This document shows positions 10,300 through 52,980 of a DNA stretch of 64,000 nucleotides, one piece after another. The DNA is taken from positions 1 to 64,000 of IMG/VR virus record IMGVR_UViG_3300022928_000019. One strand, written 5' to 3'. Position numbers and translations under genes: made by a program. A model generated the notes under the pieces. It was not told the origin of the DNA. It did not search any database and worked only from the letters and a program-made list of their open reading frames with translations. Origin of the DNA: a virus. The stretch's first letter is position 1; each line of letters begins with the position of its first letter.

Positions 10300-10304
10300 T
10301 CTTT

Positions 10305-10326
10305 ACAACCTAGATATCTAGGTTAC
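10305..10326 (+). promoter_or_regulatory. GTAACCTA-type motif (palindromic copy)
   Basis: ACAACCTA GATATC TAGGTTAC, 9 nt before ATG at 10336. Confidence 0.7.
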
Positions 10327-10335
10327 AATATAAGC

Positions 10336-13300: not shown

Positions 13301-16300
13301 GCATGTATGGAAGACAGACCTTGAAGCCCACTCGTGTATTCAGGAAGCCAAAGAATGAGCTATTGTTTAGGAGCAGAAATGACTCCATCATAACTCCTCC
13401 AATAAATATCAAAACAGTTGAGGTGGATGAAGAGGATCCTGCGAAAGGGTTCGATGAGCTTTTAGCTGATGTAGATAAAAGCAAACTTAGTGAGAGCAAA
13501 AGCACTAAGACATTGATAGCCCTAAGGTACTTCTACCCAGGGTCTGATCAGCCAGCTATTCTTTTGAGAAGAGTAGCATCCTCTAAGGGGGATGTTGTCA
13601 TTAGGGATATGAAGCGTAAGGGCGGTAAGACTTTAGACCCCCTTACAGATACATCTAGTTATTCCATTAAGATGAATAGCGATCAATATTATGATGCGCT
13701 AGAGGGTGACGAGAGAATTGAGCCAGTAGCATTATTAGAAGTAACAGAAGAGGTTAATGTAAATACCGACTTTGATACGGAGCAGGAATTTAACTTAGCA
13801 CTAGATCCATTCTTGGATAAGTCTAAAGTAAGGCTAGACCCAATGGGTATATTGGAGGGCATCGATACTTCTATCGAGCAGACGGATGACCCCGAGGTAG
13901 AGGAAAGACTTAGACTCCAAAGGAATAGGATAGAGACCATGGTTCAGGATGAAGATGGTCAATTCAATCCACTGCTAGAAATCTTTGGGTTTGTTCCTGA
14001 TAATACAATTTCCTCATTCAAGGAAGAGATCGAAAAGAGGCTTCCGGCAATTAAGGATAAGCAATTAAAAGCAAAAGGTAGGAAGATACTTAAATCCGAT
14101 CAACTTAGGATACTTGATGTTACTGAGTTCTTGGGTGGTATTGCTGAAAAGAAAGGTTCTTGGCGAGTAGGAATAAGAGCCTTGGGTGATAATGGTGAAG
14201 AGTATCAGTCTTTAGATAAGGTTATTACCACAGCTCTAAATGAATTCTCAAAGAGAGGGTACAAGCCCCGAGCGGAAAAGGGTACAGGCACGGATGCAAT
14301 GTCTCGGGCAGTAACCTCACTGCTAGATGATGAGAGAGTTAGTGATCAGACTGGAGATAAAGGATTTAGTGACTCGGGTGACATCCAGGATGAAAATGAT
14401 ATTGAGGGCAGTCAGCTACAAGATTCTATAGAACAGTCAGAGGCAGATGAGGTCACCTTAAATGATGGCTTGGACTCATACATGGGAGATGGTGGCGATG
14501 AGCAACCCATGGTTATCAGTGATGTGGAAGAGCCTATCGATCAGATTTACGTGGAAATGGCAGAGAATGCCATCGCTAATCCGAAGGTCAGGCCTGAGGA
14601 TAAGGAGCAGATAAAGTTTTCACTTTCGGTGTACAAGAACTCTAATCCTACTGAAAGAGAATCTAAGAGAGAAGAGCTTGTTATGCTCCTAGTTGAGGCA
14701 ATTAATATGGCTAATTCTGAGTCTGTTGGTGAGATTGCAAGTACCCCTGATGTAATAGAGAGGGAGATAGCATCTTCAATAGAGAAGCCTACATCGCCTC
14801 CGCCACTAGCCCAAGAGTTGATCGAGGAGAACTCAGTCTCACTTCAGAAGTTTTTTGGTGGTGCAGTCATGGATGGCGAGCCGATACGGCTAGAGGCATA
14901 TATCAATCGAATGCTCAATACCATAGTGGGTGAGGGTTCTGTTGATTCAGATATCTTAGACATGGCTCAGCAGTTAATGTCCCATCCTTATGCCAAAGAC
15001 CTTAATGTAAAGTTTGAGTCTTGGGACAACTTCAAGAAAGGTGTCAGTTCGGACGGTAGGAATGGTAAGATCACGAGGGCATATCTGCGTGGCAACACTA
15101 TTGTTATGGGGCCATTCTATAAGCTTAAGCTAGATAGTGACTTAACTGCTGATGACCATATAAGGGTCACCTTGCTCGAGGAGATTGCCCACAGTGTTTT
15201 AGACAAGGCAGTAAATGTTGCTGTTCTCACCAATAGGCTAGGAGAGTTGCCTGCTGATGTCAGGGGAGTCATATCCAAGGAGAAGGCAGACAAGCTATAT
15301 AGAGAGACTGAAGAAATCATGTCTTGGCTCAGAACCCAAACGGATGGCAGGTACTACCAAGGGCTACTGAATAAAAAAGAGTTTTGGGCAAACTTTGCAA
15401 CTAATCCTGACTTCAGGAAATTCTTAAATCGCCCGATGCCACCTCAGTTAAGGCGTAAGTTTCAGTCTAGATTCGAGAGAGTAATAGACTGGCTCTTAGA
15501 TTTAGCTAGCAAGATTTTCGATGCCGACTTCACTAGACAAGCTTCTACCTTAGATGTTATCAGAAAAAGATACCGTACGGTATTGCGTACGGCTGATAAG
15601 TTAGCAGCAGCTGATGTTGACATATACGCTACAATGAACAGCGAGAGCAGGGGGAACATCAACTCTGACCTCGGAATAAATTACAATATACAAGATGGAA
15701 AAACCCAAGATAAAACCTTTTCGTCCCTCCCGAAAATTATTGCCACCACGGAAAACCTCAGCGGAAGAGATGGCAAAGATTCCTTCTACCGTGCCGCTGT
15801 CGATAGCGGATACGAAATCACTAGACAAAATCTTAGGAAAAAGCTCGAAGGACTCCCACAAAAAATAGGCACCGAGCATGGTGCGTACTTTGATCACGAT
15901 GCAGGTCGTGCAATCAAGGTAACTAGGATTCCTGAAAGCATGATGTCCTTCGGGCATTTTTACGATGTCGGGAGATACATTAGGGATAAGCACAATATGA
16001 ATCTCCTCTTTGGGGATGATATTCAATTTGTTGGTGTTAGCCCTAGGGAAGACGGAGATTATGCGATCATCACATCACAACCTTTAATACTAGGAAGGGA
16101 AGCTACATCTGATGAGATCATAGCAGATTTAGAGGGCAGGGGGTACAAGATAACAATGACCCCAAATTGGGAGGACAATGGGGCTACCCAGGAGATCAGT
16201 GCTATTTCCGAAGATGGAACAATTGAACTATCTGATATTGCTCCCAAGAATGTTTTAGTCGATAACGAAACTGGCGAGCTTGCTTACATAGATGTTCATG

Positions 16301-19300
16301 TTGAAGCTCCTAACGATTTAGCATCGAGGGTTGAGTCAGCAGATACGTTCGATCCTGAAGAGGCAAGTGTAGCCCAAGGTACGATCCGCGCGCATATGAC
16401 CGCACTAATGGATCTCGGTAATGTAATTTCTTCTGCTCTAACTGAGGTGGGGGAAGAGTCCTCAATGTCGGTTGAGAAAATTAAGGAATATCAGGTCGTA
16501 AAAGACGGAAGCACACCCGAGGTTATTGCTAAGGTGCTTGCGGATAAGGCAGCCTCGGTTGATGAAGTTCTAGCTCAATATAGACAAGCTCTTCCTGAGC
16601 AGTCTCAGGCTACTGCAGGCTTAGATAATATCAACAATCTTGAGTCCATAGCAAATAGAGATACTGCTGCGAGAAACCTAATGAAGTTGCTAGTAGGCAC
16701 TAGGGAGAGTGCCTCTGATCTACTAGGTTCCTCACTTAAGAATTATGAGAAATTGAACTCTAAGTTAGAGAGTTCATCAGATGCAATAGCTAGGCTTACA
16801 TCCCCTAAGACAATGTTTGATGCAAGTAAAACTCAACGCCAGTTAGCCAAGGCAATGAGGGATTCACTTTATAAGCAGAATGACTCGGGTGAAGGTTCGA
16901 AGGTTAATTCATTTGAGGCTGCATTAATAGCTGAAGGCAAAGATATAAATCTCACGGACTTTAGGAAACTGAGGGGAATGGAGATCGATGAGGGCAAGCT
17001 ATTTTCCCTGTTAGAGAAGCTGTCAGTCGGTTTTAAGGGGGTAAGGTTCATCGAGCAATTAACAGCCGAGGAAATCTTTGATGCACTTACCCCCATGAGT
17101 AATGCTCATTCTCTCGTCACTAATTCAGATCCAGATACAGAGCTAGACCAAGCAGTAAAAATTGGCATTGCCCTAATCCTTGGAAGGGATCAGAGGAACT
17201 CAGTTCCCCGCAGTGCATTTACAACAAGACTAAGGTTAGCTAAAGGAGAAGTCAGTCATGAGATAGCAGATGCAGTTAGGCTTATCAAGGATGCTGCAAA
17301 TGGTAGACCTGTCAGGGATATCAAGGATAGATCCATGAGGTCTATTATTGAAAATGTTAAAAGCATCAAGGCTGACATTGATGAATATAAAGCTGACCTT
17401 GAGAAAGTTAAGGAGGAGATACGAGTAGGAGAGATACACTTAAAGGTATACGATGAAAGAATAGCTGACCTTGACGAGTATTTTGAAACCTCTGCCCCAG
17501 TAGAACTTAGAGAAGGTGGGCAATACTCTATGCTCGAGATTGATGCCGATGGAAAACTTCAAGAAACATTATTTACATTCCGACTAGGAAATGGGGAGAG
17601 TTCCGAAGAGGCAAAATATACTGCAGCCAAGGCATCTGAACTTAACAAGATAATGCAGACGGAGTCTTACAAACAAAAGTATGGGGGGACTCCAATGGAT
17701 AGGTATTTCAAGCAACTTGTTACTGAGCTAAGAAAGCCTAATTTTGGTATTCAGTATCATACTGCTCACGTAGGGTTTCTCCATGCAATGGCTCAGTCCC
17801 TACAGGAAAGGCTGTCAAATCTTGGCCCTGCAGGAAAGCTAGCAGCCTCACTTCTAAATACATACAATAGAGACTATAATGCCGAGGTAGGAGCAATATC
17901 CTCACAAGGTAAGAAAGTATCTAAGGCAATCAAGAGGCTTCATGGGGAGATGGCAAGGGAGTCGGGCGAGAATTTAAATCAGTTCATAAAAGGTTTTGGC
18001 TCCAAGATGTTCGACTGGTTCAACGAAAGACCTGACCTACAAGGACAAGAGGAGCAAGCGATCAATAAGGTTTGGTCTGACTTAAAGAAGGAAGATCCAA
18101 CAAGGCAGTACACTGAGGAAGGTAAGCGAGCCTTGAGGGCTTACCTAAAGCAATGGGGTATACAGAACGATAACTTCAGGAGACTCTATAAGAAGTACGA
18201 CATAAAGGTTGAGGACGAGAATGTACCTCGTGGTGAACTAGCCCTAGGTGTAGATTCTCCTAACCTATTCAGAGACTTCGTTGAGCAGGGTGTTTTCACA
18301 ACCCCACGTAAACTTAATCGCACAAAAATATTTCGAGTCGTATCACTTCTAGATAGTAAGTTCGCAGAGAAGGATTACGTAGATGAGGAAAGTGATGGTA
18401 ATTTCTTCGGGAAAGCTCTTGCAAGCATGCAAGAGGCTAGGGCTTCAGGAGTAGACATGGAGGAAAGCTTTCAACAGATCTTCGGTAAGTCAGTCAGCCC
18501 TGAGTTGTCTAGTCTGTTCTTCAGTCCGATTTTCAATGGTAAGTCTGCACACAATATCCCATTTGTATTACAATCGCAGGACAACGAGGGCCGGAAGAGC
18601 AAGCGCATATTACTTCCCGAAGAACTCCAAAGAGCATGGAGAAATGCAGATGGAAACAATGAGGGTATACGAGTTGCAAATGCGATCCTTTCTTTATCCA
18701 AGATCATTCCTGGTTCTAATGAGGACACCCTATTTAATCTTGTTGGTCAGATGAAACATAGGGCAAGTGCCTTGATAAAAGTTGAAAGAGAATCTAGGCA
18801 GGAGGATACAGCAATCGATAATAATGCTGACCTAATGAGGATGCTTAAGGGTTCTGACTTTCATCATTCGATTCATGGTCGAGCATTGTACAATGTTTTG
18901 CCTGGTGAGTTCTTTGAGTACGAGATGTATGATGAGACATCTTCCTCTCAGCACTTATCAAAAATAATGATGACTGCTCACTTTGGTCGCAAGGGTGAGA
19001 AGCTTGCCGACAACTTCAAGGCAATCAAGGAGCAGTATGTGGCATCGAAGGATGCGTATGCAGATTATGCACAGGCAGCAGGCGTATCACTTAGGGGAGG
19101 AAGACCTCCATCTAGGAATATTTTCGGGTATGCTATTAAGGTTAGGAAAATAAAAGCCGAGATGGCAAACAGAGGTAAGGATCCGAATACATACTCAGAC
19201 CTAGAGACTAAAGCTAAAGCTTTTTATGAGGCTGAAAACTCTATAGCTGCAACGAGTGCTGCATTCACATCAAGGAGTTCCAACAATGCAGATCTTTCTA

Positions 19301-21234
19301 TGGGGCTTGATGCACTTAGGGCATTAGCATTCGGATTGGTTAACACCATGAAGGGTGCATGGACATCTATTATGTCTATGCCTGATATCGTAAAGAAGAT
19401 GGGTCTTAATCCTACTGCATTTAGGACTCTTGGGGGAGCAGTTAAGAACTTACCTCAAGAGATAGCAGGGTCATTCTTGGAGTCATTTGGGATAGAGATG
19501 ATTAGACCTGATAAGTACAACGAAGAACTTCGTGATATGTATGGACGCGAGCAAGGCATGCTAGGGTTCGATGAGTTTACTACCGAGATAGGTAAGGAAG
19601 GTTCACTTGGGGCAGGGCAAGGGACTTTTAGGAAAATCGTTAATGTAGTACAGGGTCTCTCTCAAGCAGGTGGAAGTATGAGATCCAAGACTAGCGTTAA
19701 CTTTATTCCAGGATCTGTACTAACGCCATTCACTGCCCCATTTAGTTATCTTGCTCAGGCAGTTAATAAATCCATTTCCTTATCCATGGCAGAGACAATA
19801 GAAAGGTTTGTCCTTAGGGCTGTTGAGGCAATGGAAACCAAGGGCATAACGATAGACAATAATACCTTTGAGGTATCTGCCAAAGACCTTGGATACGAAG
19901 ATTCCAAGCTAGACTCCTGGGTCTTCGGTAGTGTGGACATGGTGGAGAAGCTGAACCAAAGACTGACTGCTGAGGGTATGTCATTTGCTCAGCTTGCACA
20001 AGACTACAGGAGAAGAAAGGAACTAGATCCTAATGCTAAGGTTCTGAGTGTAGATGCAGTTAGGGCTTCCCAGAATATTGCTATGTCTGAGGTGACCTAT
20101 GATACTATGGCCGGTAAGCCATCGGCAGCACTATCGGGAGTTGGTCAATTTTTCTCTCCTCTCCTTAGCTGGTCGGCATCTTCCTATAGTAAGGGTCTTG
20201 ATCAGATGAGAAACAAGGAGGGTCGTCTTGCTATGAGGGAGAGTGTTAGGTATATGCTCACTGCCTCGGCATGGCTCATGCCTGTTGGTATTGCCTTCAC
20301 TATGTTTATGGATTGGTGGGATGAGGAAGTACTTGGTAAGCCGTCATCTCTTAGAAAGGTTCCACCAATAGCTATGGTTCCTGGAATAGGTACATTTATG
20401 GCAATGACTGACCCAAGGTATGATGTTGCTGCTATGCTGGAAAGGGCAGCTCGAGCAAATAATATACTTGGTCTCGGGCAAGAGTTTATAACTCCTATGT
20501 TAGTCGGGCAACTTGACCCATCTTCCTTGGGTGCAAAGTTCGATCCTACCCGAAGAGTGCTTGGTATCTCAACTGTTATGAATGCCTACGCTGTGGCAAC
20601 TAACTACTTCAACGCTATAAGGACAGGAGGAAAAGAAGAAATAGTACCAGACTATGCTACAGTTGTCAGACCATTAATGTATCTAATGGGACTCAATGCA
20701 GTAATACAAAATACCCAAGCAGCAACAAACTTAACAAGCATAGAGGATATAGAGCCAACAGGCTTCATGACCAACGAAAGGCAAGTAGCTGACATCACAG
20801 GAATGAGGAACTCATTTAGGGTATTCGCAAAAGCCATAGGCATGGAGATGAGAAGAGGAGGAATAATGCAATTCTCGGCTACTGCCATGGGAAATGCTCT
20901 CAAGAGAATGGAAAGGGCAGCCTATGCAAACGATAGGCAAGCATTTAAAGATGCCTATAGGAGGGCTATCGAGCTATCTCAATCTGATGATAAACGAAAG
21001 GATGTATCCGATAAATTCAAGAAAAGACATATTCGCAATGGTGTCACTAGGTACTCAATGAGTGATGCAGACATACAAGCTATACTATCCGTGATGGATC
21101 CTGACCAAAGGTCAAAAATCCTCACTGCAATGAGGAATCACGATTTTTATCTTAAAGCTATTGGAGGCACACCATCCAAGCCAAGAAAGGATGTAGGTCA
21201 GTATAAAGAGGCGCTTAGAAAGCTTGCGTTATGA
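10336..21234 (+). CDS. Giant polyvalent internal virion protein (3632 aa) with a degenerate metallopeptidase-like domain and a Ser/Thr/Tyr kinase-like domain
   Basis: EGVTEGLQE ejection-protein-like N-terminal region; TLLEEIAH...KEFWANFATNPDF (about 15170-15430); GTEH..AIKVT..LLFGD..TSQP..SDIAPKNV..YID (about 15865-16295). Confidence 0.85.
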   Translation: MASSIIAKYREHLASQGKDSTQTTDKDLALELYSALTEQKKDFEKFAENRGDPEFAQLVRDAYEENKTFKGSAVDSIPAEYYNRKTGLQRGLSVGAGAVGMDDTARDLMRDANRNERKANKYQKNIFNDIQMIDDPIDGLKYVTQAITSTAVSVVPDMALSLITRGAGGKIQKSLEKGGKLKDVRKKLEKTMGEGYGKNIGTVAGAFGTSAVENTGHVYGDLYEYTKLDPSDEKYLSPSEARALSMVGGGASATLDSVLPVWLVGKLSKSIGADAAQKEVTKMFNGMPEGMVLLAKGTAGEGVTEGLQEVVQMLTVKYHTDEEWSPQDWNRLINASVMGAIGGGAVTGGTAAIGRMLEAPETRPWDPKLEEVDTKKEREEIRNRNALRRYADLEVGTIVSPAGSDKLARVVSKNEEDSTVVVEFRDGLTQRMDPTKLNVKQDKKRVIKEEDLESFSDQKLEELKIYSPKLTSAIEKEQERRNVEVEKDNTLKRLDTAIEVSEKGNQIIAVDSSSKERIHSATFTEEDGLLVLDNESKDSENDQRGDQARELIHKQLKAKAKKLGMPYKIGDVIEYPLSASEINQIDSKADLLVEYGRLRARYNLLGRREPETEERLIARMQELGMISLDRNNRPILGEVELKKGSNSRLLTTNPEVASVLSGSIFTDLEANLVGYEDTLNASQINDKFILKEAKAMLGDMAETIDGLNHSDVARIAEGATELFKKHYLDEDGGWKAGKTRKDIEDEEAERQEIALMRKQESKDRFDLIKPQVGNFVQIAKGQAPQKITSVDEENFTVRTTEGGDNDISARSIIRQAEERPLERNGEFVTELNSGKVRKKVVVTGSDTNGEYRGRKSLTVTFEKNGDIISVTDSENNYYSDAKGLSVDDDEFQSTLASITLTKVEQKDPPTPKPQKVADNIFRIGNTIEGSVLQVNGSKKIGKHELVPVLTDNTGRVSGIKVGDEELTFDDPVPASEWVETARTKLKAEGMYGRQTLKPTRVFRKPKNELLFRSRNDSIITPPINIKTVEVDEEDPAKGFDELLADVDKSKLSESKSTKTLIALRYFYPGSDQPAILLRRVASSKGDVVIRDMKRKGGKTLDPLTDTSSYSIKMNSDQYYDALEGDERIEPVALLEVTEEVNVNTDFDTEQEFNLALDPFLDKSKVRLDPMGILEGIDTSIEQTDDPEVEERLRLQRNRIETMVQDEDGQFNPLLEIFGFVPDNTISSFKEEIEKRLPAIKDKQLKAKGRKILKSDQLRILDVTEFLGGIAEKKGSWRVGIRALGDNGEEYQSLDKVITTALNEFSKRGYKPRAEKGTGTDAMSRAVTSLLDDERVSDQTGDKGFSDSGDIQDENDIEGSQLQDSIEQSEADEVTLNDGLDSYMGDGGDEQPMVISDVEEPIDQIYVEMAENAIANPKVRPEDKEQIKFSLSVYKNSNPTERESKREELVMLLVEAINMANSESVGEIASTPDVIEREIASSIEKPTSPPPLAQELIEENSVSLQKFFGGAVMDGEPIRLEAYINRMLNTIVGEGSVDSDILDMAQQLMSHPYAKDLNVKFESWDNFKKGVSSDGRNGKITRAYLRGNTIVMGPFYKLKLDSDLTADDHIRVTLLEEIAHSVLDKAVNVAVLTNRLGELPADVRGVISKEKADKLYRETEEIMSWLRTQTDGRYYQGLLNKKEFWANFATNPDFRKFLNRPMPPQLRRKFQSRFERVIDWLLDLASKIFDADFTRQASTLDVIRKRYRTVLRTADKLAAADVDIYATMNSESRGNINSDLGINYNIQDGKTQDKTFSSLPKIIATTENLSGRDGKDSFYRAAVDSGYEITRQNLRKKLEGLPQKIGTEHGAYFDHDAGRAIKVTRIPESMMSFGHFYDVGRYIRDKHNMNLLFGDDIQFVGVSPREDGDYAIITSQPLILGREATSDEIIADLEGRGYKITMTPNWEDNGATQEISAISEDGTIELSDIAPKNVLVDNETGELAYIDVHVEAPNDLASRVESADTFDPEEASVAQGTIRAHMTALMDLGNVISSALTEVGEESSMSVEKIKEYQVVKDGSTPEVIAKVLADKAASVDEVLAQYRQALPEQSQATAGLDNINNLESIANRDTAARNLMKLLVGTRESASDLLGSSLKNYEKLNSKLESSSDAIARLTSPKTMFDASKTQRQLAKAMRDSLYKQNDSGEGSKVNSFEAALIAEGKDINLTDFRKLRGMEIDEGKLFSLLEKLSVGFKGVRFIEQLTAEEIFDALTPMSNAHSLVTNSDPDTELDQAVKIGIALILGRDQRNSVPRSAFTTRLRLAKGEVSHEIADAVRLIKDAANGRPVRDIKDRSMRSIIENVKSIKADIDEYKADLEKVKEEIRVGEIHLKVYDERIADLDEYFETSAPVELREGGQYSMLEIDADGKLQETLFTFRLGNGESSEEAKYTAAKASELNKIMQTESYKQKYGGTPMDRYFKQLVTELRKPNFGIQYHTAHVGFLHAMAQSLQERLSNLGPAGKLAASLLNTYNRDYNAEVGAISSQGKKVSKAIKRLHGEMARESGENLNQFIKGFGSKMFDWFNERPDLQGQEEQAINKVWSDLKKEDPTRQYTEEGKRALRAYLKQWGIQNDNFRRLYKKYDIKVEDENVPRGELALGVDSPNLFRDFVEQGVFTTPRKLNRTKIFRVVSLLDSKFAEKDYVDEESDGNFFGKALASMQEARASGVDMEESFQQIFGKSVSPELSSLFFSPIFNGKSAHNIPFVLQSQDNEGRKSKRILLPEELQRAWRNADGNNEGIRVANAILSLSKIIPGSNEDTLFNLVGQMKHRASALIKVERESRQEDTAIDNNADLMRMLKGSDFHHSIHGRALYNVLPGEFFEYEMYDETSSSQHLSKIMMTAHFGRKGEKLADNFKAIKEQYVASKDAYADYAQAAGVSLRGGRPPSRNIFGYAIKVRKIKAEMANRGKDPNTYSDLETKAKAFYEAENSIAATSAAFTSRSSNNADLSMGLDALRALAFGLVNTMKGAWTSIMSMPDIVKKMGLNPTAFRTLGGAVKNLPQEIAGSFLESFGIEMIRPDKYNEELRDMYGREQGMLGFDEFTTEIGKEGSLGAGQGTFRKIVNVVQGLSQAGGSMRSKTSVNFIPGSVLTPFTAPFSYLAQAVNKSISLSMAETIERFVLRAVEAMETKGITIDNNTFEVSAKDLGYEDSKLDSWVFGSVDMVEKLNQRLTAEGMSFAQLAQDYRRRKELDPNAKVLSVDAVRASQNIAMSEVTYDTMAGKPSAALSGVGQFFSPLLSWSASSYSKGLDQMRNKEGRLAMRESVRYMLTASAWLMPVGIAFTMFMDWWDEEVLGKPSSLRKVPPIAMVPGIGTFMAMTDPRYDVAAMLERAARANNILGLGQEFITPMLVGQLDPSSLGAKFDPTRRVLGISTVMNAYAVATNYFNAIRTGGKEEIVPDYATVVRPLMYLMGLNAVIQNTQAATNLTSIEDIEPTGFMTNERQVADITGMRNSFRVFAKAIGMEMRRGGIMQFSATAMGNALKRMERAAYANDRQAFKDAYRRAIELSQSDDKRKDVSDKFKKRHIRNGVTRYSMSDADIQAILSVMDPDQRSKILTAMRNHDFYLKAIGGTPSKPRKDVGQYKEALRKLAL
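15695..15868 (+). CDS. Candidate nested +1-frame ORF (57 aa) just upstream of the kinase domain
   Basis: Hand translation MEKPKIKPFRPSRK...DSHKK*; TACAAT at 15682-15687 lies 7 nt before the ATG. Confidence 0.35.
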   Translation: MEKPKIKPFRPSRKLLPPRKTSAEEMAKIPSTVPLSIADTKSLDKILGKSSKDSHKK

Positions 21235-23853: not shown

Positions 23854-24894
23854 TCACTTATGGACATAGCCTTCGGTTGTCTTGGTATTTGAGTGACCGA
23901 CTGCCTTACCAATATCCTCTAGGCTTAATCCTGCTTTATCTAATCTAGTAATACAAGAGTGCCTAAGGCAGTGAAACGACCTGCCATATATGTCTAATCT
24001 CTCGCACAACCTTTTGAAGTAAACACTAGGCTTAGATCTAGTCTTTGGGTTGGTTATAATATCATGCCATTCAGGAAAGCAGTATACCTTATCTTCAACA
24101 TCTATCTCACTGAGTACTTGTTGTATTATGCCCGAGCCAAAGTACTGACTAGTAGTATCAATTGATACCAACTTGTCTCGCTTTATCGTCCATACCACCA
24201 TCTTCTTTCTATTCCTAATGCTGTCCCACTCAAGGGATGCAATGTCTGCTAGCCTAAGACCTGTCCAATAGGATATGGCAGTAGCCTGTCTAAAGAAATA
24301 TGGTGCATTCTTGATTATTTTATCTACCTCTTTCTTGAGGAATATATCTCTTTCCTTGGGGGTCTTTTGTTTGTGGGTAAGCTTGGAATTGTCTATCTTA
24401 AGAAACATAAGTGGGTTAGTCATTACATACATCTTTATCTGAGCAAAGTTCCATAGCTGACTCATGGTTGATTTACGTAATGCCCTCATGCTTAATGAGG
24501 TTCCATCATTCTTATTCAAATAGTCGTAGATATCTTTTTCAGATATACTAGCAATTGGCTTATCAATACATTTGTAAGCCTTGCCGAACTGCTCGTATAT
24601 CGATGTCATCGTGTAGATGGAATTCTGTGATGTTGCACTAAACTCCATGTGCTTCTTGTATTCCTCGACAACATCCCAGAACTTCATGGACTTACTGCCT
24701 ACGATCTTTGTTATAACATCAGCAGATAAAACGCCTAGCTTACCAGCATCCTCAAGCTCTGATATCCTAAGATCTTTCACGAGCTTGTTTGCTTCTTTGC
24801 GATCCCTTGTCCTCAGGTGGGTGGATCTCAATGTGCCATTGATATCCTTGTACTTGACTGAGTAGTCACCGCTCTTGTTTTTCACTATTTTCAT
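23854..24894 (-). CDS. int: Tyrosine recombinase/integrase 1
   Basis: TGLR, K, HCLRH, VGH, TEGY: full catalytic set. Confidence 0.93.
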   Translation of the reverse strand: MKIVKNKSGDYSVKYKDINGTLRSTHLRTRDRKEANKLVKDLRISELEDAGKLGVLSADVITKIVGSKSMKFWDVVEEYKKHMEFSATSQNSIYTMTSIYEQFGKAYKCIDKPIASISEKDIYDYLNKNDGTSLSMRALRKSTMSQLWNFAQIKMYVMTNPLMFLKIDNSKLTHKQKTPKERDIFLKKEVDKIIKNAPYFFRQATAISYWTGLRLADIASLEWDSIRNRKKMVVWTIKRDKLVSIDTTSQYFGSGIIQQVLSEIDVEDKVYCFPEWHDIITNPKTRSKPSVYFKRLCERLDIYGRSFHCLRHSCITRLDKAGLSLEDIGKAVGHSNTKTTEGYVHK

Positions 24895-24918: not shown

Positions 24919-27168
24919 TTACACATGAGCAAGCTCTAAACTCTTAGCTTGCTTAGCGAGTTTGTCTCGCAGTTCCATCCACTCGAGTTCCATCTCTATC
25001 TCACTCTTAGTCTCAATGAGATCCTCATCAAAACTAAGGAAGTGGTCAGCCATTATATCATCAACACTACCATCTTGGTAATCCACTGGCACATACTCGC
25101 CTAGTATGCACATGGTGGCAGCGTCTCGCTTGTCTGCTAGCTTGTCAAACATGGACTCCTCAATTGTATCTTTGCTAAGAAGCACAGTAATATCTGCATC
25201 CCTCTTAGAGTTTACTCGGTACACCCTACCTAGGGCTTGATGGAATGACCCATAGCTCCATTCGAATGATCCGATTATCATATTGGGGCAATCAGGAAAG
25301 CTATGTCCAACTGCACACTTAGCACCCATGAGCAGTACTTGTGTATCATGCCTCCTGAATTGATTAGCCTCCCGAGCATGGTCTGATGCATTTGAGTCTA
25401 TCCTAGAGAACGAAACATCTGCGTCCTCTAGTCTGTTGGACAGTTCATCTGTCTGACCTATGCATGATGATATATGAATGACCTGCTCACCTTGTGATAT
25501 GTACTTATGTACAAGCTCGAGCGTGGTGATAAGCTTGGGATTGAAGTTAGATGACACCACTCCTTCATTAAATGATCTACCTGCAGGATCTGCACATATA
25601 CCACGTAGCCTCTGCAACTGAACTCCATAACATGTCTTTGGATCCTTGTATGGTATATTCTTAATATCTAGGTTGTGGGCATATAGTTTCTTTTGGGCAT
25701 ATCCCAATGGCACTCTGAGTGTCTTTACATTACACTTAACTACATCAGGGTTACATTGCTCCTTGGATATGAAAGCAACGAGTGACTTAAGGACTTTGAG
25801 TAATCTCTGAGCCTGACTGATAATTGGACTAGTCTTAATACATGAGGATCCATTTCCCCTGATAGCCTCCTCGGTGTAGTCTCTCTCACGTGTAAGGAAT
25901 GTGCTACAAAATGTAGCCTCATCCTCTAGTGCATATGGCCACCTAGGATTACTCTTCTTGCCATGAAACCAATTCGGTACTGCGAGCCATCCTAGTATAG
26001 GGAATATGTTCGGTAGGATATTAGGTATGGGTGTAGCAGTTAAGGCATACCTATACTTAGGTTGAAGTCTAATGATTGCCCGAGTTATCGCTGAGTCTAG
26101 TGACTGCATGATGTGAGCCTCATCGAGCATAACACAATCAAAGTGGTGTCCTGCTATGCTAGATAGACTAGGCTTCAGCACACAAGTGAATCCATTGTGA
26201 GTTTGCCCGATGCCACAATGATATTCGTTATCTACCGATGGAGGGTTATCGGGATCCCATGGTGCATTGTAGCCAAGGTCTCGCATCTTTGACCTAAGCA
26301 ATCTCTCACGATCCTGTGCTGCCCATGATCTAGGTATAGTTTCTATACCACCATTGAGGAAGAATGCAGTCGGGTAGGTTATATAAACACCTGTCGGCAG
26401 TGTGCCATCACTACGAAGATGTTTGTAATAGTCATCAGCAGAGAAGATTGTACGCACTTTTGTGTCGGGTGAGAACTTAGCCATCTCTGCGATCCATTGA
26501 GCGGGGTCATACTTCTTCAGCCTACCATCGGAACTTTTGACAGTACCCTTGGGTGCTACCAAGAGAGTACGCCTAGCATTCTTTAGGGAGTTCAATGCGA
26601 TTGCCATGCATGTCTTACCTGTACCTACATCTCCACACACTAGTGCCTGATCAACACATGCCACTCGAGCAATGTAATCAAGCTGACCAGGATAGAAGGT
26701 AAAGTCATTTATTTCTTCTAGTACTCTGCATTTATCCTTAATCCGATTGAATGCCTTGGGTCTAAGTTCAGCAACAGTCTTAACCTCGGGCATCTCAAAG
26801 AAGTCCCACATCTGAATAGATGTAAGTTCGTAATCTCCAATAGGATTATCCCGAAAAACGAACTGCCTCTTTCTGTCATCAGTGAATGCATATCCGGCAT
26901 CAACGCCCGATCTCTCGATGTCATGATCTACCACATAGGTTCGACCACTCTTCTCGGTGTGCATCTTCTTCTTGGACACTGGTCTAGTGTATGAATACTT
27001 GAGTCTCTTAAAGGTGTAATCTTTACCTGCAGTTACGCGAGGTAACAATGTCTTGGTCTTAGAGCTAGGTGTTTGCTTAGCAGTCAAGACCTTCAACTCA
27101 TCCACCATCCCGACCAACTCATATGGGGTCAGAGGGAGTAGGGGAGGAGAGGTATACTTATACTTCAT
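24919..27168 (-). CDS. SNF2-family (SF2) helicase
   Basis: DVGTGKT, DEAH, LTATP, QALGRVYR motifs. Confidence 0.92.
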   Translation of the reverse strand: MKYKYTSPPLLPLTPYELVGMVDELKVLTAKQTPSSKTKTLLPRVTAGKDYTFKRLKYSYTRPVSKKKMHTEKSGRTYVVDHDIERSGVDAGYAFTDDRKRQFVFRDNPIGDYELTSIQMWDFFEMPEVKTVAELRPKAFNRIKDKCRVLEEINDFTFYPGQLDYIARVACVDQALVCGDVGTGKTCMAIALNSLKNARRTLLVAPKGTVKSSDGRLKKYDPAQWIAEMAKFSPDTKVRTIFSADDYYKHLRSDGTLPTGVYITYPTAFFLNGGIETIPRSWAAQDRERLLRSKMRDLGYNAPWDPDNPPSVDNEYHCGIGQTHNGFTCVLKPSLSSIAGHHFDCVMLDEAHIMQSLDSAITRAIIRLQPKYRYALTATPIPNILPNIFPILGWLAVPNWFHGKKSNPRWPYALEDEATFCSTFLTRERDYTEEAIRGNGSSCIKTSPIISQAQRLLKVLKSLVAFISKEQCNPDVVKCNVKTLRVPLGYAQKKLYAHNLDIKNIPYKDPKTCYGVQLQRLRGICADPAGRSFNEGVVSSNFNPKLITTLELVHKYISQGEQVIHISSCIGQTDELSNRLEDADVSFSRIDSNASDHAREANQFRRHDTQVLLMGAKCAVGHSFPDCPNMIIGSFEWSYGSFHQALGRVYRVNSKRDADITVLLSKDTIEESMFDKLADKRDAATMCILGEYVPVDYQDGSVDDIMADHFLSFDEDLIETKSEIEMELEWMELRDKLAKQAKSLELAHV

Positions 27169-28049
27169 GCTGCCTCCTTATGTTTCTTTACTTTGTATAT
27201 GATCTTAGGATACCGACCTTGGGCGTCAGGTATCGGTGGGATAAGAATATCTTGCCCCTGTTTGTTTACGAAGTAGTCGCTATGCAAGGTACGCAAGTGA
27301 CCGACTCTGCCATTTTTAAGCGGACTAGATTTCTTCTGTCCATTTTTTTCTTGGTATTCCCTAATAACTTTAGGCAAGTAGACCACGCGATAGAGTGATT
27401 GCTTTGAGTCTATCTTGTACTTCTTCTTGATCTGCTTCATTACCTTCTTGTTGCTCCGATCAATTCTACTTGGAGCAAAGTATGGTATAGCCGAGTAGTT
27501 GATTACCTTGAGTGCCATAAGCACAGTCTCCATTACTTTAATGGCATTATCATCATAGCCTGCGAACTCTATGAACTCTGAGATCTTCTTTCTGAGTTCA
27601 CCCTCGCCACACTCACTCGGTAGGTTGCCTCGGATATGCCCGGATGGATGCTTGATTGTGTATATGATTACATCATCAAACCATACAGGTATTCCTGTTG
27701 CATCTGGCCCCCACTGCATTGACAGCTTGCAGAGTAATTCCTTTGCTGCTTCATCCTCCAATTTGCATGCATATTCCCAAGCATGTTGAATTAAGTTTGC
27801 CTGGTGTCCCTTGCTAATAACTATCTCATGGTATTCCTTATCCTCGAACTTAATAGTCAAACTTTCGCTAGGCCACTTTGACTTAGAAAAGTTATTTGTA
27901 ACATGGGTTGCTTGCATGGCATCTGTCACGCTTTTATCTACGAGCATAGTTTGCCCATAGTGGTTATTCCATACTTCATTGATAATACCTACTGCAGTGG
28001 TTGAATCATCATACTCTGCACCTTCACTTCCGAATATTCTCTCAGTCAT
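27165..28049 (-). CDS. Hypothetical phage protein
   Basis: 294 aa; C-terminal R.GHLR motif; AGAAAGGA upstream on the minus strand. Confidence 0.65.
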   Translation of the reverse strand: MTERIFGSEGAEYDDSTTAVGIINEVWNNHYGQTMLVDKSVTDAMQATHVTNNFSKSKWPSESLTIKFEDKEYHEIVISKGHQANLIQHAWEYACKLEDEAAKELLCKLSMQWGPDATGIPVWFDDVIIYTIKHPSGHIRGNLPSECGEGELRKKISEFIEFAGYDDNAIKVMETVLMALKVINYSAIPYFAPSRIDRSNKKVMKQIKKKYKIDSKQSLYRVVYLPKVIREYQEKNGQKKSSPLKNGRVGHLRTLHSDYFVNKQGQDILIPPIPDAQGRYPKIIYKVKKHKEAA

Positions 28050-28085
28050 CTCTCATCCTTTCTTTGTTGGTTGTTTAAAATAAAT

Positions 28086-28252
28086 TCAGTCGGGGGCAGG
28101 TTTTTGGTCATCACGTGGATTTGTTGCCCACGCTCGCATTATCCCTTGCGACCTTGCCCGAAGGCTTCTCCACCTTAGATGCACTGAATATAGATGCACC
28201 TAAGGCTCAAAATGGAGGCATTAAAGATCGCTCCCTAAGAACCCCCGACTGA
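28086..28252 (-). ncRNA. Candidate structured ncRNA (about 167 nt)
   Basis: Perfect 11-bp closing stem TCAGTCGGGGG/CCCCCGACTGA, internal cUUCGg hairpin, multibranch helices; motif copy 3 nt upstream. Confidence 0.6.
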
Positions 28253-28255
28253 TAT

Positions 28256-28277
28256 GTCACCTATGATACTAGGTTAC
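28256..28277 (-). promoter_or_regulatory. GTAACCTA-type motif upstream of the candidate ncRNA
   Basis: Minus strand reads GTAACCTA GTATCA TAGGTGAC. Confidence 0.65.
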
Positions 28278-28517
28278 TTTCTTGTGAAGAGCGTAACCCA
28301 TGCAATTCTTATTCGAGTCCCACACTAGAAACATTTGCCCCTGCTGTAGTGCGACAGTCGTCAGAGGTATTAACTCCTGAGGAAGATGTAGACTATTAAA
28401 CCTTAGTGCTATGTCCTCGGCTAAATCACCATCTTGCTTGACGGACTCTGTTTCAAACACCTCATATGCTTTATCAATATTAAACGGAGGTGGTTTAAAT
28501 TTTTCTAGCCTACTCAT
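28269..28517 (-). CDS. Hypothetical protein
   Basis: 82-aa ORF coupled by ATGA overlap. Confidence 0.6.
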   Translation of the reverse strand: MSRLEKFKPPPFNIDKAYEVFETESVKQDGDLAEDIALRFNSLHLPQELIPLTTVALQQGQMFLVWDSNKNCMGYALHKKVT

Positions 28518-29011
28518 GATATAGCCTTATTAAGTATCCTTGCCAACTCATCCTTTACTATAAAGCGTACACGATCTTCTGTCAGATTATTGTTAAGAAG
28601 AGTAGCAATGGCATTGAGCCTAGGGTCAGGTCTCGGGCTATTGCGCTGCCTTGGAGGCTGCGGTGGGGTATCCTCATCCTCATCCTCATCCTCGTCCTCT
28701 TCCTCGTCCTCTTCCTCCCAAACTGCCTCGATTGAGTCACGACTTATGTTTGGTTCTGCTAGTTTTGCAATGGGTACTAGCATCTTGTAGATCTTTTGCT
28801 TGGTTGAGTGGATCTCGTCATCCCTCATGTCCTCATCCTCAGCCCAGTCATCACCGAAGAAGCTCTTTAATAGTTCTCCCTCGTCTAATACCACTGACTG
28901 AAGTGAGTCACAGTCGGCATCAACGTTTTCTTGAAGCCATTGGTTAACCGCATCCCTAGCATTAGGGTTAGCGCGTTGTAGTTTTAATATTTCTTTGTAG
29001 TAGTCACTCAT
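28514..29011 (-). CDS. Acidic hypothetical protein
   Basis: Poly-E/D tract; motif copy at 29015-29036 directly upstream. Confidence 0.65.
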   Translation of the reverse strand: MSDYYKEILKLQRANPNARDAVNQWLQENVDADCDSLQSVVLDEGELLKSFFGDDWAEDEDMRDDEIHSTKQKIYKMLVPIAKLAEPNISRDSIEAVWEEEDEEEDEDEDEDEDTPPQPPRQRNSPRPDPRLNAIATLLNNNLTEDRVRFIVKDELARILNKAIS

Positions 29012-29032
29012 GATGTAATACAGGTATATAGG

Positions 29033-30505
29033 TTACATTATAAAATGTGCAAACAAAATTCTGTATGCACGTTCAGCTTGGGTTGGCACAATGCCATTAC
29101 CCAAAAGTCTTAGTCTTGGAACTCGCTGAGCCATGACTTCGGGAGAAGCGTAGTATTCTTTGGTAGTCCCATCAGGGATTCTACCCATGTAGGGTTGAGC
29201 TTCCCCGACTGTGAAAGAAGAGCTAGGTCTCTGCCCAAGCATTTCTGATTGGATTCCACTGATGTCCTCGCTCCCTCCACATGATCCGATGCTTGAGGGG
29301 TTCCCCATGTGCTGGCTACCTTCCGCCCCAATGTCTCCTGGGATCCCTCGGGTACTGTCCCCATGGTATCCTTCCAATCCCTCGACATTGGAGTCGGCCA
29401 CTTCTGCATTGTCTCCACTGCATCTCTCAGCTTGGGAGTCCACTTCTCCCCCTTGGCATTCGTCCGAATGAATCGTCCGTTCTCTAGGGTCACATTCGGT
29501 GCTAGTCCTCCCTCGGCATCGACTGTCCTCGGTGTGGGATACATTATCTCGGGGTTCATCTCGGGGTTCACTACATCCTCCCTCAGATTCTTGCACCCTC
29601 CCTTCTTCTTGTTCCGAGCTAGTGCTTCCCCTGTCTTCGGTGGGAGTACATCCATCGTGTTGGGAGTTGCCCAACTCTTCAGTGCCACTGCTGACAGACT
29701 CGGACTCTGCCTGTTCTTCTCCGACTCGGGAGTTCCGTCCGTCTTCCCTGTCCTCGGGGTAGGCCATGATGACTCTTGGTTCTTCCCATCCGTACTGAGC
29801 TTCCCCTGGACGTGAAGGCCATGTACCTGCTCGCCAAGGTTGCTTTTCCCCCGATCCGTCATGCAAGCTCGGGAGTCTTGCTCTTTCGGAGTCCCCCAAC
29901 CTTCGTTCAATTTCAGTGTCAGGGTTTGTGTTACGGAAGAGCATGAAGACTCGCTTACGTTGGTGAGGCGCGCCTTCTTCACTCGCACTGACCAATGTGA
30001 ACGCACCCTCGTAACCAATTTTTTCCATGTATCCCATGACATATTTGAGAACGCTTGTGTCCTGCTCGCCACCGAACTTACAACTGATGATCCCTTCGAC
30101 ATTTTCGAGGGCAACCCAGTTTGGTCGGCAAAGCTGAACTCCGTCTGCAATGAAGGGGAACAAGTGCCTTGGGTCTTCAGTTCCCTTCCGAATGCCTGAC
30201 GATGAGAAGGGTTGGCAAGGGAATCCCGCAGATAAGATGTCCACGCATCCACGGAACTTTCCGTATGGGAACTCTTTAACATCCGTAAAGATAGGTGCTT
30301 CAGAAAGTTCACCCTCTTCAATCTTCGCAACCAAGTTGGCGCAAGCGTATCCTTCCCGTTCCACGTATGCGATTTCTCGCAAGTTTGGGAATAGTCCTCG
30401 AAGTCCTCTCCCCATCCCTTCATATCCACTGCACATAGAGAGGTGAGTGACGACGTTCTCGGTAAGTATACCCTGTAATTGTTCTTCTTCATAATCTAGA
30501 TTCAT
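29033..30505 (-). CDS. C5-cytosine DNA methyltransferase, alpha polypeptide (motifs I-VIII and X)
   Basis: SMCSGYEG (I), GFPCQPFS (IV), ENV (VI), HQRKRVF (VIII), RLRLLGNGIVP (X). Likely start is MNLDY at 30505, right after the motif at 30507-30528. Confidence 0.9.
   Translation of the reverse strand: MNLDYEEEQLQGILTENVVTHLSMCSGYEGMGRGLRGLFPNLREIAYVEREGYACANLVAKIEEGELSEAPIFTDVKEFPYGKFRGCVDILSAGFPCQPFSSSGIRKGTEDPRHLFPFIADGVQLCRPNWVALENVEGIISCKFGGEQDTSVLKYVMGYMEKIGYEGAFTLVSASEEGAPHQRKRVFMLFRNTNPDTEIERRLGDSERARLPSLHDGSGEKQPWRAGTWPSRPGEAQYGWEEPRVIMAYPEDREDGRNSRVGEEQAESESVSSGTEELGNSQHDGCTPTEDRGSTSSEQEEGRVQESEGGCSEPRDEPRDNVSHTEDSRCRGRTSTECDPRERTIHSDECQGGEVDSQAERCSGDNAEVADSNVEGLEGYHGDSTRGIPGDIGAEGSQHMGNPSSIGSCGGSEDISGIQSEMLGQRPSSSFTVGEAQPYMGRIPDGTTKEYYASPEVMAQRVPRLRLLGNGIVPTQAERAYRILFAHFIM
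29110..30492 (-). CDS. Overlapping alternative-frame methyltransferase beta polypeptide (W.TP repeats plus motif IX)
   Basis: 460-codon same-strand open frame with WGTP/WPTP/WATP/YPTP repeats ending in LNPTWVESLMGLP. Confidence 0.75.
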   Translation of the reverse strand: MKKNNYRVYLPRTSSLTSLCAVDMKGWGEDFEDYSQTCEKSHTWNGKDTLAPTWLRRLKRVNFLKHLSLRMLKSSHTESSVDAWTSYLRDSLANPSHRQAFGRELKTQGTCSPSLQTEFSFADQTGLPSKMSKGSSVVSSVASRTQAFSNMSWDTWKKLVTRVRSHWSVRVKKARLTNVSESSCSSVTQTLTLKLNEGWGTPKEQDSRACMTDRGKSNLGEQVHGLHVQGKLSTDGKNQESSWPTPRTGKTDGTPESEKNRQSPSLSAVALKSWATPNTMDVLPPKTGEALARNKKKGGCKNLREDVVNPEMNPEIMYPTPRTVDAEGGLAPNVTLENGRFIRTNAKGEKWTPKLRDAVETMQKWPTPMSRDWKDTMGTVPEGSQETLGRKVASTWGTPQASDHVEGARTSVESNQKCLGRDLALLSQSGKLNPTWVESLMGLPKNTTLLPKSWLSEFQD

Positions 30506-30598
30506 TGTAATATAAAAATATAGGTAACATTTGTTAGCGATAGAGCGACATTGCCATAAGGACAACCCCCACCCAAAATAGAATAATTAGTAGGTCAT

Positions 30599-30991
30599 TC
30601 ATTTTGCCCACACCATTGGTAAGATTAGCCATGCACGAGAGGCATTTAATATGGGTTCACCCTTATGCGTTACGAAGCTCTCGTTTTCCATCGGGTTGTA
30701 CTTTACCCTTTTCCATGTCTCATCCCCCAAAGCCCGAATAGACGTTGGGTTCGGGTGAAGGATTCCCCTTAGCCATGCATGAACCTCCTTCCTCTTGTTA
30801 GCCACTACCTTTAGACGAGTCTTATCTCGAACAACAAAAGAAGGCTTATCAAGGTGAGCAATATCGGCATGAGCCTTAACCAAACCATCCTGACGAATAC
30901 TCCAGCAATCCTGATGCAGGTTTCGATACACATCAAAAGGTCTATTAAAATCCAAATGATAACGTGGGTCATGTTGTTTTAGTAGTTTCAT
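30599..30991 (-). CDS. Conserved phage early protein
   Basis: VYRNLH...WSIR...V..H...FVV...KEVHA...YNP pattern widespread in phages. Confidence 0.7.
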   Translation of the reverse strand: MKLLKQHDPRYHLDFNRPFDVYRNLHQDCWSIRQDGLVKAHADIAHLDKPSFVVRDKTRLKVVANKRKEVHAWLRGILHPNPTSIRALGDETWKRVKYNPMENESFVTHKGEPILNASRAWLILPMVWAK

Positions 30992-31293
30992 ACTTCCTCC
31001 AGTGATTCTAAGATCTTGTCGTGGTCTAGCTTTGCTGCGATAGACTCCAAGACTTTGTCGTGATTAGTTATAAAGTGAGAGATATCTGATTCCTCGTCAT
31101 GTAGCAGAACGCTACACAACTTGGTTACTCGGATATCCTCCACATAGTCAGGGCAGTGGTGGGTACTACTGATACTTCCATAGTCGTAGTCGAATGAATC
31201 GTTGCCGACACCGAACTCAGCAGTTCCACTCACTGTTACATTAACACCGAGGACATTCATTTCTTCGTCCTCAAACTCATACTCATAGCTCAT
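30988..31293 (-). CDS. Acidic hypothetical protein
   Basis: Motif at 31295-31316 directly upstream. Confidence 0.65.
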   Translation of the reverse strand: MSYEYEFEDEEMNVLGVNVTVSGTAEFGVGNDSFDYDYGSISSTHHCPDYVEDIRVTKLCSVLLHDEESDISHFITNHDKVLESIAAKLDHDKILESLEEV

Positions 31294-33649: not shown

Positions 33650-33681
33650 TAGTAGCAACCTAGAGAACTAGGTTACTACTA
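33650..33681 (-). promoter_or_regulatory. Motif copy embedded in an extended hairpin
   Basis: agtagcaacctag-agaa-ctaggttactact. Confidence 0.6.
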
Positions 33682-39582: not shown

Positions 39583-39640
39583 ACGTCTAGGTGACGTAGT
39601 TTTAACGTAGTTATGACGTAGTTCACACGTAGTTCTAACG
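39583..39640. repeat. 11-bp-period direct repeats, core ACGTAGTT x4 plus degenerate copies
   Basis: Cores at 39594, 39605, 39616 and 39627. Confidence 0.9.
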
Positions 39641-40736: not shown

Positions 40737-40815
40737 CATACCCATTGATTATCAATGACTTATGGCATAAGTGTTACCTAATGACCATTAGGTTACAAAG
40801 GGGGGTGCCGGGGGG
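40737..40815. promoter_or_regulatory. IHF-like sites, motif variant and G-runs at the strand divergence (possible terminus/pac region)
   Basis: TATCAATGACTTA (40750-40762) matches WATCAANNNNTTR; GTTACCTA-N8-TAGGTTAC; G6-TGCC-G6 at 40800-40815. Confidence 0.45.
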
Positions 40816-52698: not shown

Positions 52699-52980
52699 TT
52701 ATACTTAACTTAAAAGTATAGTACTTACTTTACCCAAGGCATTGCCTCCTTAAATCCCCCCCCTATAGTCCCCCCCCTTTGATGGTTCCATGCCAAGTCG
52801 GAAGATGAGTAAATCCGTACGCTTTTACTCATTCACAAAATACCCAATCGGAACTTTAACGTAGTTTTAACGTAGTTCATACGTAATCCACTAATTTCGG
52901 TAGTTGGAATTTGTTATATAGGTATAGGCATAGGATATAGACATAGTCATAGATACAGAATCAGATTCAGATATATAAAA
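52699..52980. other. Candidate replication origin
   Basis: Non-coding; C8-TATAGT-C8 (52756-52777), ACGTAGTT 11-bp repeats (52859-52888), run of ATAGNN/CAGA hexamer-like repeats (about 52919-52977). Confidence 0.45.

Follow-up and report, generated by a model that had tools for sequence, protein, structure and literature searches.

We analyzed bases 1-64000 ("the window", the whole stretch of 64,000 nucleotides) of the 72,883-base virus record IMGVR_UViG_3300022928_000019, which was judged 96% complete. On its minus strand, at 28086-28252, the window carries a non-coding folded RNA gene of 167 nucleotides (nt). The family of this RNA is not in Rfam, and so far it has been found only in uncultured phage contigs. 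We consider it very nearly certain that this is a real conserved structured RNA and that its family is new. An earlier note, written from the sequence alone, had proposed a structured RNA here, and its fold, its homologues and strong covariation among them bear the proposal out. As to function, the best explanation (probability about 0.45) appears to be a discrete folded RNA that acts through an invariant core by binding a protein or a small ligand, either of which would be a putative partner.

Fold, covariation and comparison with known RNA families

All of the complementary segments listed in the earlier note are present on the minus strand. They include an 11-bp terminal stem (TCAGTCGGGGG/CCCCCGACTGA), CTCCA/TGGAG around CCTTAGG.../...CCTAAGG-type arms, GCC-TTCG-GGC, and CGTGG/CCACG. 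The RNA has a minimum free energy of -70.9 kcal/mol, compared with -49.5 +/- 4.2 kcal/mol in 200 dinucleotide shuffles (z -5.07); none of the 200 folds as well. The opposite strand of 28086-28252 has a fold z of -4.08. About 20 cells of the alignment are G.U pairs, including the invariant G.U that closes helix P3, and these would be A-C mismatches if the other strand were read; the RNA strand is therefore the minus strand of the window. A protein-coding reading was rejected because the homologues share no consistent open frame, and one of them (L042) lacks any sense-strand frame open across the core.

Homologues were found in uncultured viral and metagenome contigs by blastn, core pattern scans, and a covariance model, R1, with 170 positions and 28 pairs. 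Together with the window there are nine distinct sequences (the window; L011=L006; L009=L002=L003=L013=L014; L007; L005=L016; L015=L017; L022; L018=L019; L042=L044). R1 matches the window RNA with 174.9 bits, as a single copy in the 72.9-kb record, and each of the six virus or metagenome-assembled genome (MAG) records that were searched whole contains exactly one copy.

The sequences were realigned with R1 (alignments A4 and A5). A5 comprises the eight long forms and leaves out the short form, L018/L019. Of the 223 cells in A5, 91.9% form standard pairs, and in 24 of the 28 modelled pairs both sides have changed in a compensatory way. On each of five measures all 500 column shuffles fall short, and controls in which the 3' partners were slid by 1-3 columns have 32.7-44.6% of cells paired and 5-7 compensated pairs. 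With the short form included, 90.8% of cells are paired and 22/28 pairs are compensated. The absence of such covariation had been named in the earlier note as grounds for abandoning the RNA; it is present and strong.

Compensation is spread over five helices. In P1 all 11 pairs are compensated, with 79.3% of cells paired; all cells (100%) are paired in P2 (6/6 pairs compensated), the P2b tetraloop hairpin (2/3), a 2-bp mini-helix (1/2) and P3 (4/6). Two points weigh against taking these counts at full value: the counts come from alignments fitted to the model, a procedure that favours pairing, and there are just 8-9 distinct sequences, some of them close relatives (L007/L005). An unfitted MAFFT alignment folded with RNAalifold recovers P2, P2b and P3, with 13 of 26 predicted pairs compensated.

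Sequence conservation is concentrated in unpaired positions. The eight long forms agree completely in 41 of 178 columns, of which 33 are unpaired: four lie in the junction strand J1/2 and the other 29 in the two strands that flank P3 and in the P2b and P3 hairpin loops. Identity to the window sequence is 83-98% in the core, 37-59% in a variable domain and 18-64% in the P1 columns; the P1 sequence is different in every lineage. In L005 the RNA core is about 85% identical while the adjoining protein is only 37% identical. An AGG/CCT pairing at the base of the P3 arm appears in RNAalifold and in single-sequence folds, and both of its sides are invariant, hence it can give no covariation signal.

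In overall architecture, the closing helix P1 leads into a three-way junction with two further arms: P2, which carries a domain of variable size, and P3. From 5' to 3' on the minus strand the elements are P1, J1/2, P2 around the variable domain, the conserved strand AAGGGATAATGCGA, the P3 hairpin, the conserved strand GATGACCAAAAACCTG, and the 3' strand of P1. P1 is GC-rich, 11-14 bp long across lineages, and closes the ends of the RNA; it consists of an inner 5-bp and an outer 4-7-bp part, in most lineages with a small internal loop between them. In the window its 5' strand (RNA nt 1-11, 28242..28252) pairs with its 3' strand (nt 157-167, 28086..28096), a pairing supported by covariation. In J1/2 (TTCTTAGGGA, nt 12-21, 28232..28241) the long forms all keep two T's and the GA at its end. 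In P2, GCGATC (nt 22-27, 28226..28231) pairs with GGTCGC (nt 100-105, 28148..28153), again with covariation. The variable domain inside P2 (nt 28-99, 28154..28225) has about 72 nt and two arms, the long arm P2a (nt 36-85), with CTCCA/TGGAG around a hairpin, and the P2b hairpin GCC-TTCG-GGC (nt 88-97), in which 2/3 pairs covary. In the 102-nt L018 form this domain is reduced to a single 4-bp hairpin.

The strand AAGGGATAATGCGA (nt 106-119, 28134..28147) contains invariant columns and holds the non-bulged side of a kink-turn-like loop (G118, A119) and the 5' side of the mini-helix (T115, G116). It is followed by the P3 hairpin (nt 120-140, 28113..28133), with an invariant G.T pair, 5 bp, and the 9-nt loop GCAACAAAT. 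The strand GATGACCAAAAACCTG (nt 141-156, 28097..28112) contains a 3-nt GAT bulge, the GA of the kink-turn-like loop, the 3' side of the mini-helix, and AAACCTG. The helices listed in the earlier note survive in part. P1, the UUCG-type hairpin and CGTGG/CCACG covary; the GGTC/GACC and GCA/TGC pairings are unconserved, and GGTCGC is the 3' strand of the covarying P2 helix with GCGATC in place of the former.

We describe the internal loop of the P3 arm as kink-turn-like by its sequence signature, with a putative kink in three dimensions. The strand 3' of P3 has a 3-nt bulge (GAT; GAA in L022), then G, A, then C, C, A; the facing strand reads TGC, GA and finally the closing G of P3. By the standard definition in PMC5061560, the loop has a bulge of 3 nt, G.A and A.G next to it, and a C in position 3b. 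In 7/9 distinct sequences the signature is present, with GA opposite GA after a GAT or GAA bulge. The canonical (C) helix would be the Watson-Crick P3 5' of the bulge, with 4/6 pairs covarying. The noncanonical (NC) side would be the 2-bp mini-helix past the G.A pairs, and here the pair two steps out changes from T-A to G-C in 3/8 sequences. Kink-turns with 3b=C are described as able to fold with metal ions alone in PMC4382518, and several riboswitches (SAM-I and others) as using kink-turns to dock a loop onto a junction in PMC4316175. If real, the kink would turn the conserved P3 loop back toward the junction.

The expectation that the RNA belongs to no known family held. The whole window has no match to Rfam 15 (4227 models) at gathering scores, and ARAGORN predicts no tRNA or tmRNA gene in the 64 kb. 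At E values up to 10, the region 27900-28450 gives four weak matches, the best of them to the archaeal C/D-box RNA sR36 (RF01124) with 19.6 bits against a threshold of 55. Four homologous loci give a RybB-like match over the L018 terminator (23.1/40 bits) and a match to IS009 (15.6/117 bits), neither of them over the core.

The likeness to sR36 lies in the strings TGATGA and CTGA and in the kink-turn-like loop; this RNA differs in having no guide regions, and its phage carries bacterial-type genes (DnaB, SSB, RusA). We rejected a C/D-box RNA because the D-like CTGA is lineage-specific, unconserved P1 sequence and the score is far below gathering. The hammerhead core consensus is CTGANGA, a GAAA strand, and a cleavage-site triplet around three helices. 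A hammerhead was rejected as well: the base before TGATGA is G, A or T and never C, L007 and L005 have TGATAA, and Rfam gives no hammerhead match. An IS110 bridge RNA or other guide RNA was set aside, since the neighbours are a tyrosine integrase, an SNF2 protein, a C5 methylase and unknowns, and there is no conserved complementarity of at least 12 nt. A Pfam scan of 38 window open reading frames (ORFs) gave no reverse transcriptase, RNA-guided nuclease or IS110-type recombinase.

We file the RNA as a new family within a known kind, the phage-encoded structured RNAs. HK022 put RNA and the P4 CI and P1 C4 immunity RNAs are promoter-proximal phage RNAs that act on the transcript or the polymerase. 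This RNA resembles them as the first element of a transcription unit, in or beside a lysogeny module, that is possibly released from a leader; it differs in its other, larger fold and has no Rfam C4 match and no conserved target complementarity. It has several features in common with SAM-I-type kink-turn riboswitches (PMC4316175): a junction of several helices, unpaired nucleotides that do not vary, a kink-turn-like loop with 3b=C and a peripheral arm of variable size. It differs from them in having no sequence or model similarity, a very long closing helix, varying downstream genes and, in the window, no visible expression platform.

A set of 8,495 unnamed structured-RNA candidates of 29-151 nt from IMG/VR intergenic regions is reported in PMC10690425. 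Like this RNA, those candidates are intergenic, phage-only, supported by covariation and without an assigned function. They are shorter than its 167 nt, and the words integrase, k-turn and three-way are absent from the main text of that paper. Part of this RNA may already be among them.

Gene contexts and a promoter-like motif

In the window the RNA lies in a series of minus-strand genes. Upstream are a C5 DNA methylase (29033-30565), a 165-aa acidic ORF with an E/D repeat two genes before the RNA (28514-29011), and an 82-aa ORF between that ORF and the RNA. Downstream is an A-rich spacer (28050..28085) with the Shine-Dalgarno-like AAAGAAAGGA and without a terminator or a motif copy, then a 294-aa ORF (27165..28049) with no Pfam or PHROG match, an SNF2-type helicase (24919-27168) and a tyrosine integrase (23854-24894). 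AAAGAAAGGA is kept in L011, L009, L007 and L005. Because the 294-aa gene has a ribosome-binding site and no motif of its own, the RNA must, judging from the sequence, be part of the transcript of that gene in this phage.

Across the nine sequences the RNA occurs in four contexts. In the first (a; the window, L011, L009-type contigs, L007 and L005) a small ORF ending in GYALH is followed by the motif, the RNA, the A-rich spacer with AAAGAAAGGA and a homologue of the 294-aa ORF. This context continues with a large ORF and a 346-aa ORF, identified by Pfam as SNF2 and integrase for the window only. In the second (b; L022) the RNA stands before an 828-aa SNF2 protein and a 346-aa integrase. In the third (c; L015/L017 and L042/L044) the order is a DpdA-like gene (with a Pfam match on L017 only), the motif, the RNA, a palindromic motif copy and a 351-aa integrase. 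In the fourth (d; L018/L019) a 16-bp hairpin (-24.6 kcal/mol, z -5.34) and a T-run begin 1 nt past P1, followed by small ORFs; one of these two loci is in a 194.5-kb record with PhoH and a sigma-factor-like gene.

The reverse combination also occurs. L004 and L010 carry a homologue of the 294-aa gene behind a coding region, with no RNA within 3 kb. R1 finds no RNA with four relatives of the 294-aa protein (L004, L010, L008, L012), of which L008 ends 19 nt upstream of the protein match and is uninformative. Because of the four contexts and of L004/L010, the RNA is a mobile module of its own with no obligatory neighbour, and it mostly heads a unit that ends in an integrase. The earlier note had offered the RNA as a structured leader of the operon of the 294-aa gene, SNF2 and integrase. 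The position fits in this phage, and the tie to the 294-aa gene fails: L022, L015/L017/L042/L044 and L018/L019 have other neighbours.

The 294-aa protein has no sequence match to any PDB chain. Its AlphaFold model has a pLDDT of 71.4 and no PDB fold match at E <=0.001. The most suggestive fold match is the anti-CRISPR AcrVA2 (7ci2_A; probability 0.84, TM 0.32, E 0.035), which is a lead only. The basic C-terminal 55 residues are predicted to be disordered yet contain many invariant residues.

A 22-nt motif (GTAACC, 12 AT-rich nt, TAAC) ends 0-3 nt ahead of the ATG of nine window ORFs, and two more copies end 8 and 17 nt ahead of an ATG. Examples are at 39241-39220, 38802-38781, 37098-37077, 35416-35395, 31316-31295 and 29036-29015 on the minus strand and at 1675-1696 on the plus strand. 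Related copies stand ahead of start codons in the relatives G005 and G002. Some copies are palindromic (10304-10332, 33654-33678, 40773-40796). One copy, GTAACCTAGTATCATAGGTGAC (28277-28256, minus strand), with GTAACC, 12 nt and GTGAC replacing the usual TAAC, ends 3 nt before P1; the RNA thus follows a promoter-like motif at start-codon spacing, as the earlier note had it. The distance from motif to P1 is 3 nt in L011 and L009, 4 nt in L042 and 5 nt in L007/L005. The copy in L015 is degenerate, and L022 and L018 have no motif before the RNA.

The motif may be a promoter, and its position implies near-leaderless mRNAs or a phage-specific start signal. Read by inspection, its positions 7-12 resemble a -10 hexamer, and a start about 7 nt past this hexamer would fall in TAAC. 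Transcripts that start within TAAC would be near-leaderless mRNAs, and the RNA would begin a few nt before P1. A sigma-70 consensus scan of the window has no match beside the RNA. For L018 there is a promoter-like site (9-of-12) that stops 5 nt short of P1 and is no better than those in shuffles. A consensus scan for terminator-like sites gives none in 27800-28600, and the same scan missed the L018 terminator that folding reveals.

Contigs of 151-194 nt from four metatranscriptome runs (at most three samples) lie over 28079-28381 at depth 2-4.3, with a few others scattered across the rest of 26000-31000. These runs were picked for containing this stretch and the contigs come without a DNA control, so that transcription, ends and level are not deducible from them. 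A pile-up at 28670-28720 corresponds to the low-complexity acidic repeat, which is matched by other organisms.

Candidate functions

A discrete RNA that binds a partner through its invariant core ranks first because of the long P1 that closes the ends, the terminator in context (d), the second motif in context (c), the changing neighbours and the invariant unpaired nucleotides. Transcription would begin at the promoter-like motif a few nt before P1, so the RNA would be the first thing made from the unit. In L018/L019 it would end at the intrinsic terminator, as a discrete species of about 140 nt. In the window no terminator follows, and for this reason it would also be the 5' end of the 294-aa/SNF2/integrase transcript. 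With the putative kink, the conserved P3 loop would come to lie against the junction. Less likely are antisense pairing and a classical riboswitch that opens and closes P1. The P1 of switching riboswitches is typically 4-8 bp, and the P1 found here is longer (11-14 bp).

Several observations weigh against this explanation. A loose regular expression for the motif has 20 matches in the window, not above mononucleotide shuffles (mean 9.8, maximum 21), and the case for the motif rests for that reason on its position before start codons. Four metatranscriptome contigs cross the motif (28096-28289, 28146-28296, and 28231-28381 in two runs), so the proposed start lies inside some of the molecules sampled, or inside contaminating DNA. 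At the kink-turn-like loop L007 has A at the key G position 1b, and L005 has A at 1b and at 2n. The RNA and the 294-aa ORF of the window have no separator, as would be expected of a cis-acting leader, and same-strand genes lie downstream in every context. A terminator right behind a conserved fold, as in L018, is also a classic riboswitch or attenuator layout.

These last points lead to the strongest rival, a cis-acting leader, either a riboswitch aptamer or an element that binds polymerase or another protein (compare HK022 put RNA) and controls read-through or translation downstream. In most lineages the controlled genes would be SNF2 and integrase. We hold this to be possible and somewhat doubtful. 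The RNA is promoter-proximal in all lineages and has the conserved fold 5' of same-strand genes expected of a riboswitch in each of the four contexts; an integrase lies within the downstream unit in 3/4 contexts, and the L018 terminator begins 1 nt past P1. Invariant junction nucleotides and a peripheral arm of variable size, both found here, are typical of aptamers. Set against this are the GC-rich P1 of 11-14 bp and the absence of an alternative pairing of the P1 3' strand with the Shine-Dalgarno region or the L018 terminator, as judged by eye with no formal search. The directly downstream gene also varies by lineage, and L015-type phages have a second motif copy between the RNA and the integrase ORF.

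A broader claim is that the RNA is a sensor or catalyst of a new class (riboswitch, polymerase-modifying element or ribozyme) that heads the SNF2-integrase lysogeny unit of a temperate phage; we put this at rather unlikely. If the RNA were a sensor, the phage would read a host metabolite or factor through it when deciding on integrase expression. If the RNA responded to a ligand or a factor of the host, lysogeny control would be tied to RNA sensing. Phage structured RNAs with many invariant junction nucleotides are the usual source of new riboswitch, ribozyme and ribonucleoprotein (RNP) classes. Should the RNA be merely a stabilising 5' structure, it would still be a clean new family for Rfam. 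It is compact, with a natural minimal form of 102 nt, and it has a clear architecture, a probable kink-turn, a putative start signal of its own and a recurrent place heading the SNF2/integrase module, which make it amenable to synthesis and probing.

A self-cleaving or self-processing ribozyme of a new class, freeing itself or the downstream mRNA from the primary transcript, is improbable. Such an RNA could have a highly conserved junction core with variable peripheral helices, as is seen here, and could be fused to downstream genes in the window and form a separate unit elsewhere. Several small ribozyme classes have been found in phage or integrase neighbourhoods. Against it stand the absence of any Rfam ribozyme match, even at E up to 10, and the bases around TGATGA described above, which lack the hammerhead C.

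We think an antisense or guide function very improbable; in this reading the variable domain would base-pair with a target in the phage or the host, on the model of the P4 CI and P1 C4 immunity RNAs and the IS110 bridge RNAs. The RNA does have a variable domain next to a constant scaffold, and its nt 45-58 are complementary to a 14-mer in the sense transcript of the SSB gene (about 0.07 expected by chance, by our own arithmetic). That 14-mer sits in a paired arm, and the longest genome-wide complement in the relatives G005 and G002 is 11 nt, which is chance level. The Pfam-scanned ORFs contain neither of the enzymes that could be expected here, an IS110-type recombinase or a reverse transcriptase. 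The guide role suggested in the earlier note is thus left with one 14-mer in this phage and no complement of at least 12 nt in two relatives.

Least probable of all is a site acting as DNA (attP for the nearby integrase, an origin or a protein-binding palindrome) with an incidental RNA-like fold: the gap is the only sizeable non-coding one beside the integrase in L015-type phages and its ~52-nt 3' core is conserved as an att core copied from a host gene would be, and against this the compensatory changes in five helices and the ~20 G.U cells are strand-specific RNA features, the P1 3' strand is unconserved, unlike the 3' end of a host gene, and the core is absent both from cellular genomes, by the strict pattern described below, and from the relatives of the one MAG that holds it.

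Distribution and other features of the phage

The RNA was traced through its neighbours and by its own sequence. Single-protein searches of viral contigs with the 294-aa and SNF2 proteins found nothing, and only an alignment-based search succeeded: the 294-aa protein has 10 relatives (39-81% identity), and their alignment, A1, retrieved four viral and seven metagenome loci. By blastn of the RNA against the regions upstream, nt 88-161 are 94.7% identical in L011/L006 and nt 105-157 are 85-88% identical in L009/L003/L002, L007 and L005. Further members, from pattern scans on the conserved core and with R1 matches, are the viral contigs L015, L018/L019 (the short form), L022 and L042/L044, and L017, a contig collinear with L015. 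Nine other viral contigs matched by the pattern (L020, L021, L023, L037-L041, L043) are not members, having no R1 match or one of at most 14.2 bits.

L017 is contig 21 of MAG G001, which is labelled "uncultured archaeon", and it carries the DpdA-like gene, the RNA and the integrase as phage L015 does. It is probably a viral contig and hence no evidence for an archaeal host. The strict core pattern, run on one genome for each of 185,579 species, matched only one contig, which is collinear with phage L015. Sixty relatives of the MAG with L017 all lack the RNA core. There is no homologue in cultured phages or in E. coli, the only match, 30 nt at E=2 within an Aeromonas phage gene, being taken as chance. 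Compared with 50,697 deposited phage records, the window shows no DNA match, near or distant.

Between L007 (242-300) and L005 (2851-2910) the RNA and its upstream flank are almost identical, with sharp divergence just past the AAAGAAAGGA ribosome-binding site. Their homologues of the 294-aa protein are 60% and 37% identical to that of the window. This marks a mosaic recombination boundary at the 3' side of the RNA.

Elsewhere in the window are genes for DnaB, SSB, RusA, a Rad52-like protein, a PD-(D/E)XK nuclease, a large terminase and a portal-like protein, which point to a bacterial tailed phage. A second integrase-like ORF of 308 aa (53042-53968, minus strand) matches N-terminal SAM-like domains only. 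On the plus strand, a giant ORF of 3,632 aa (10336-21234) with no PHROG match lies in a run of large unannotated ORFs, and a 273-aa ORF (1697-2518) contains eight tandem 27-nt (9-codon) repeats at 2086-2382. Two clusters of 11-nt direct repeats (ACGTAGTT-type, 3-4 copies each) are found in non-coding gaps at 39583-39637 and 52848-52891; they are iteron-like and could be an origin or an operator array.

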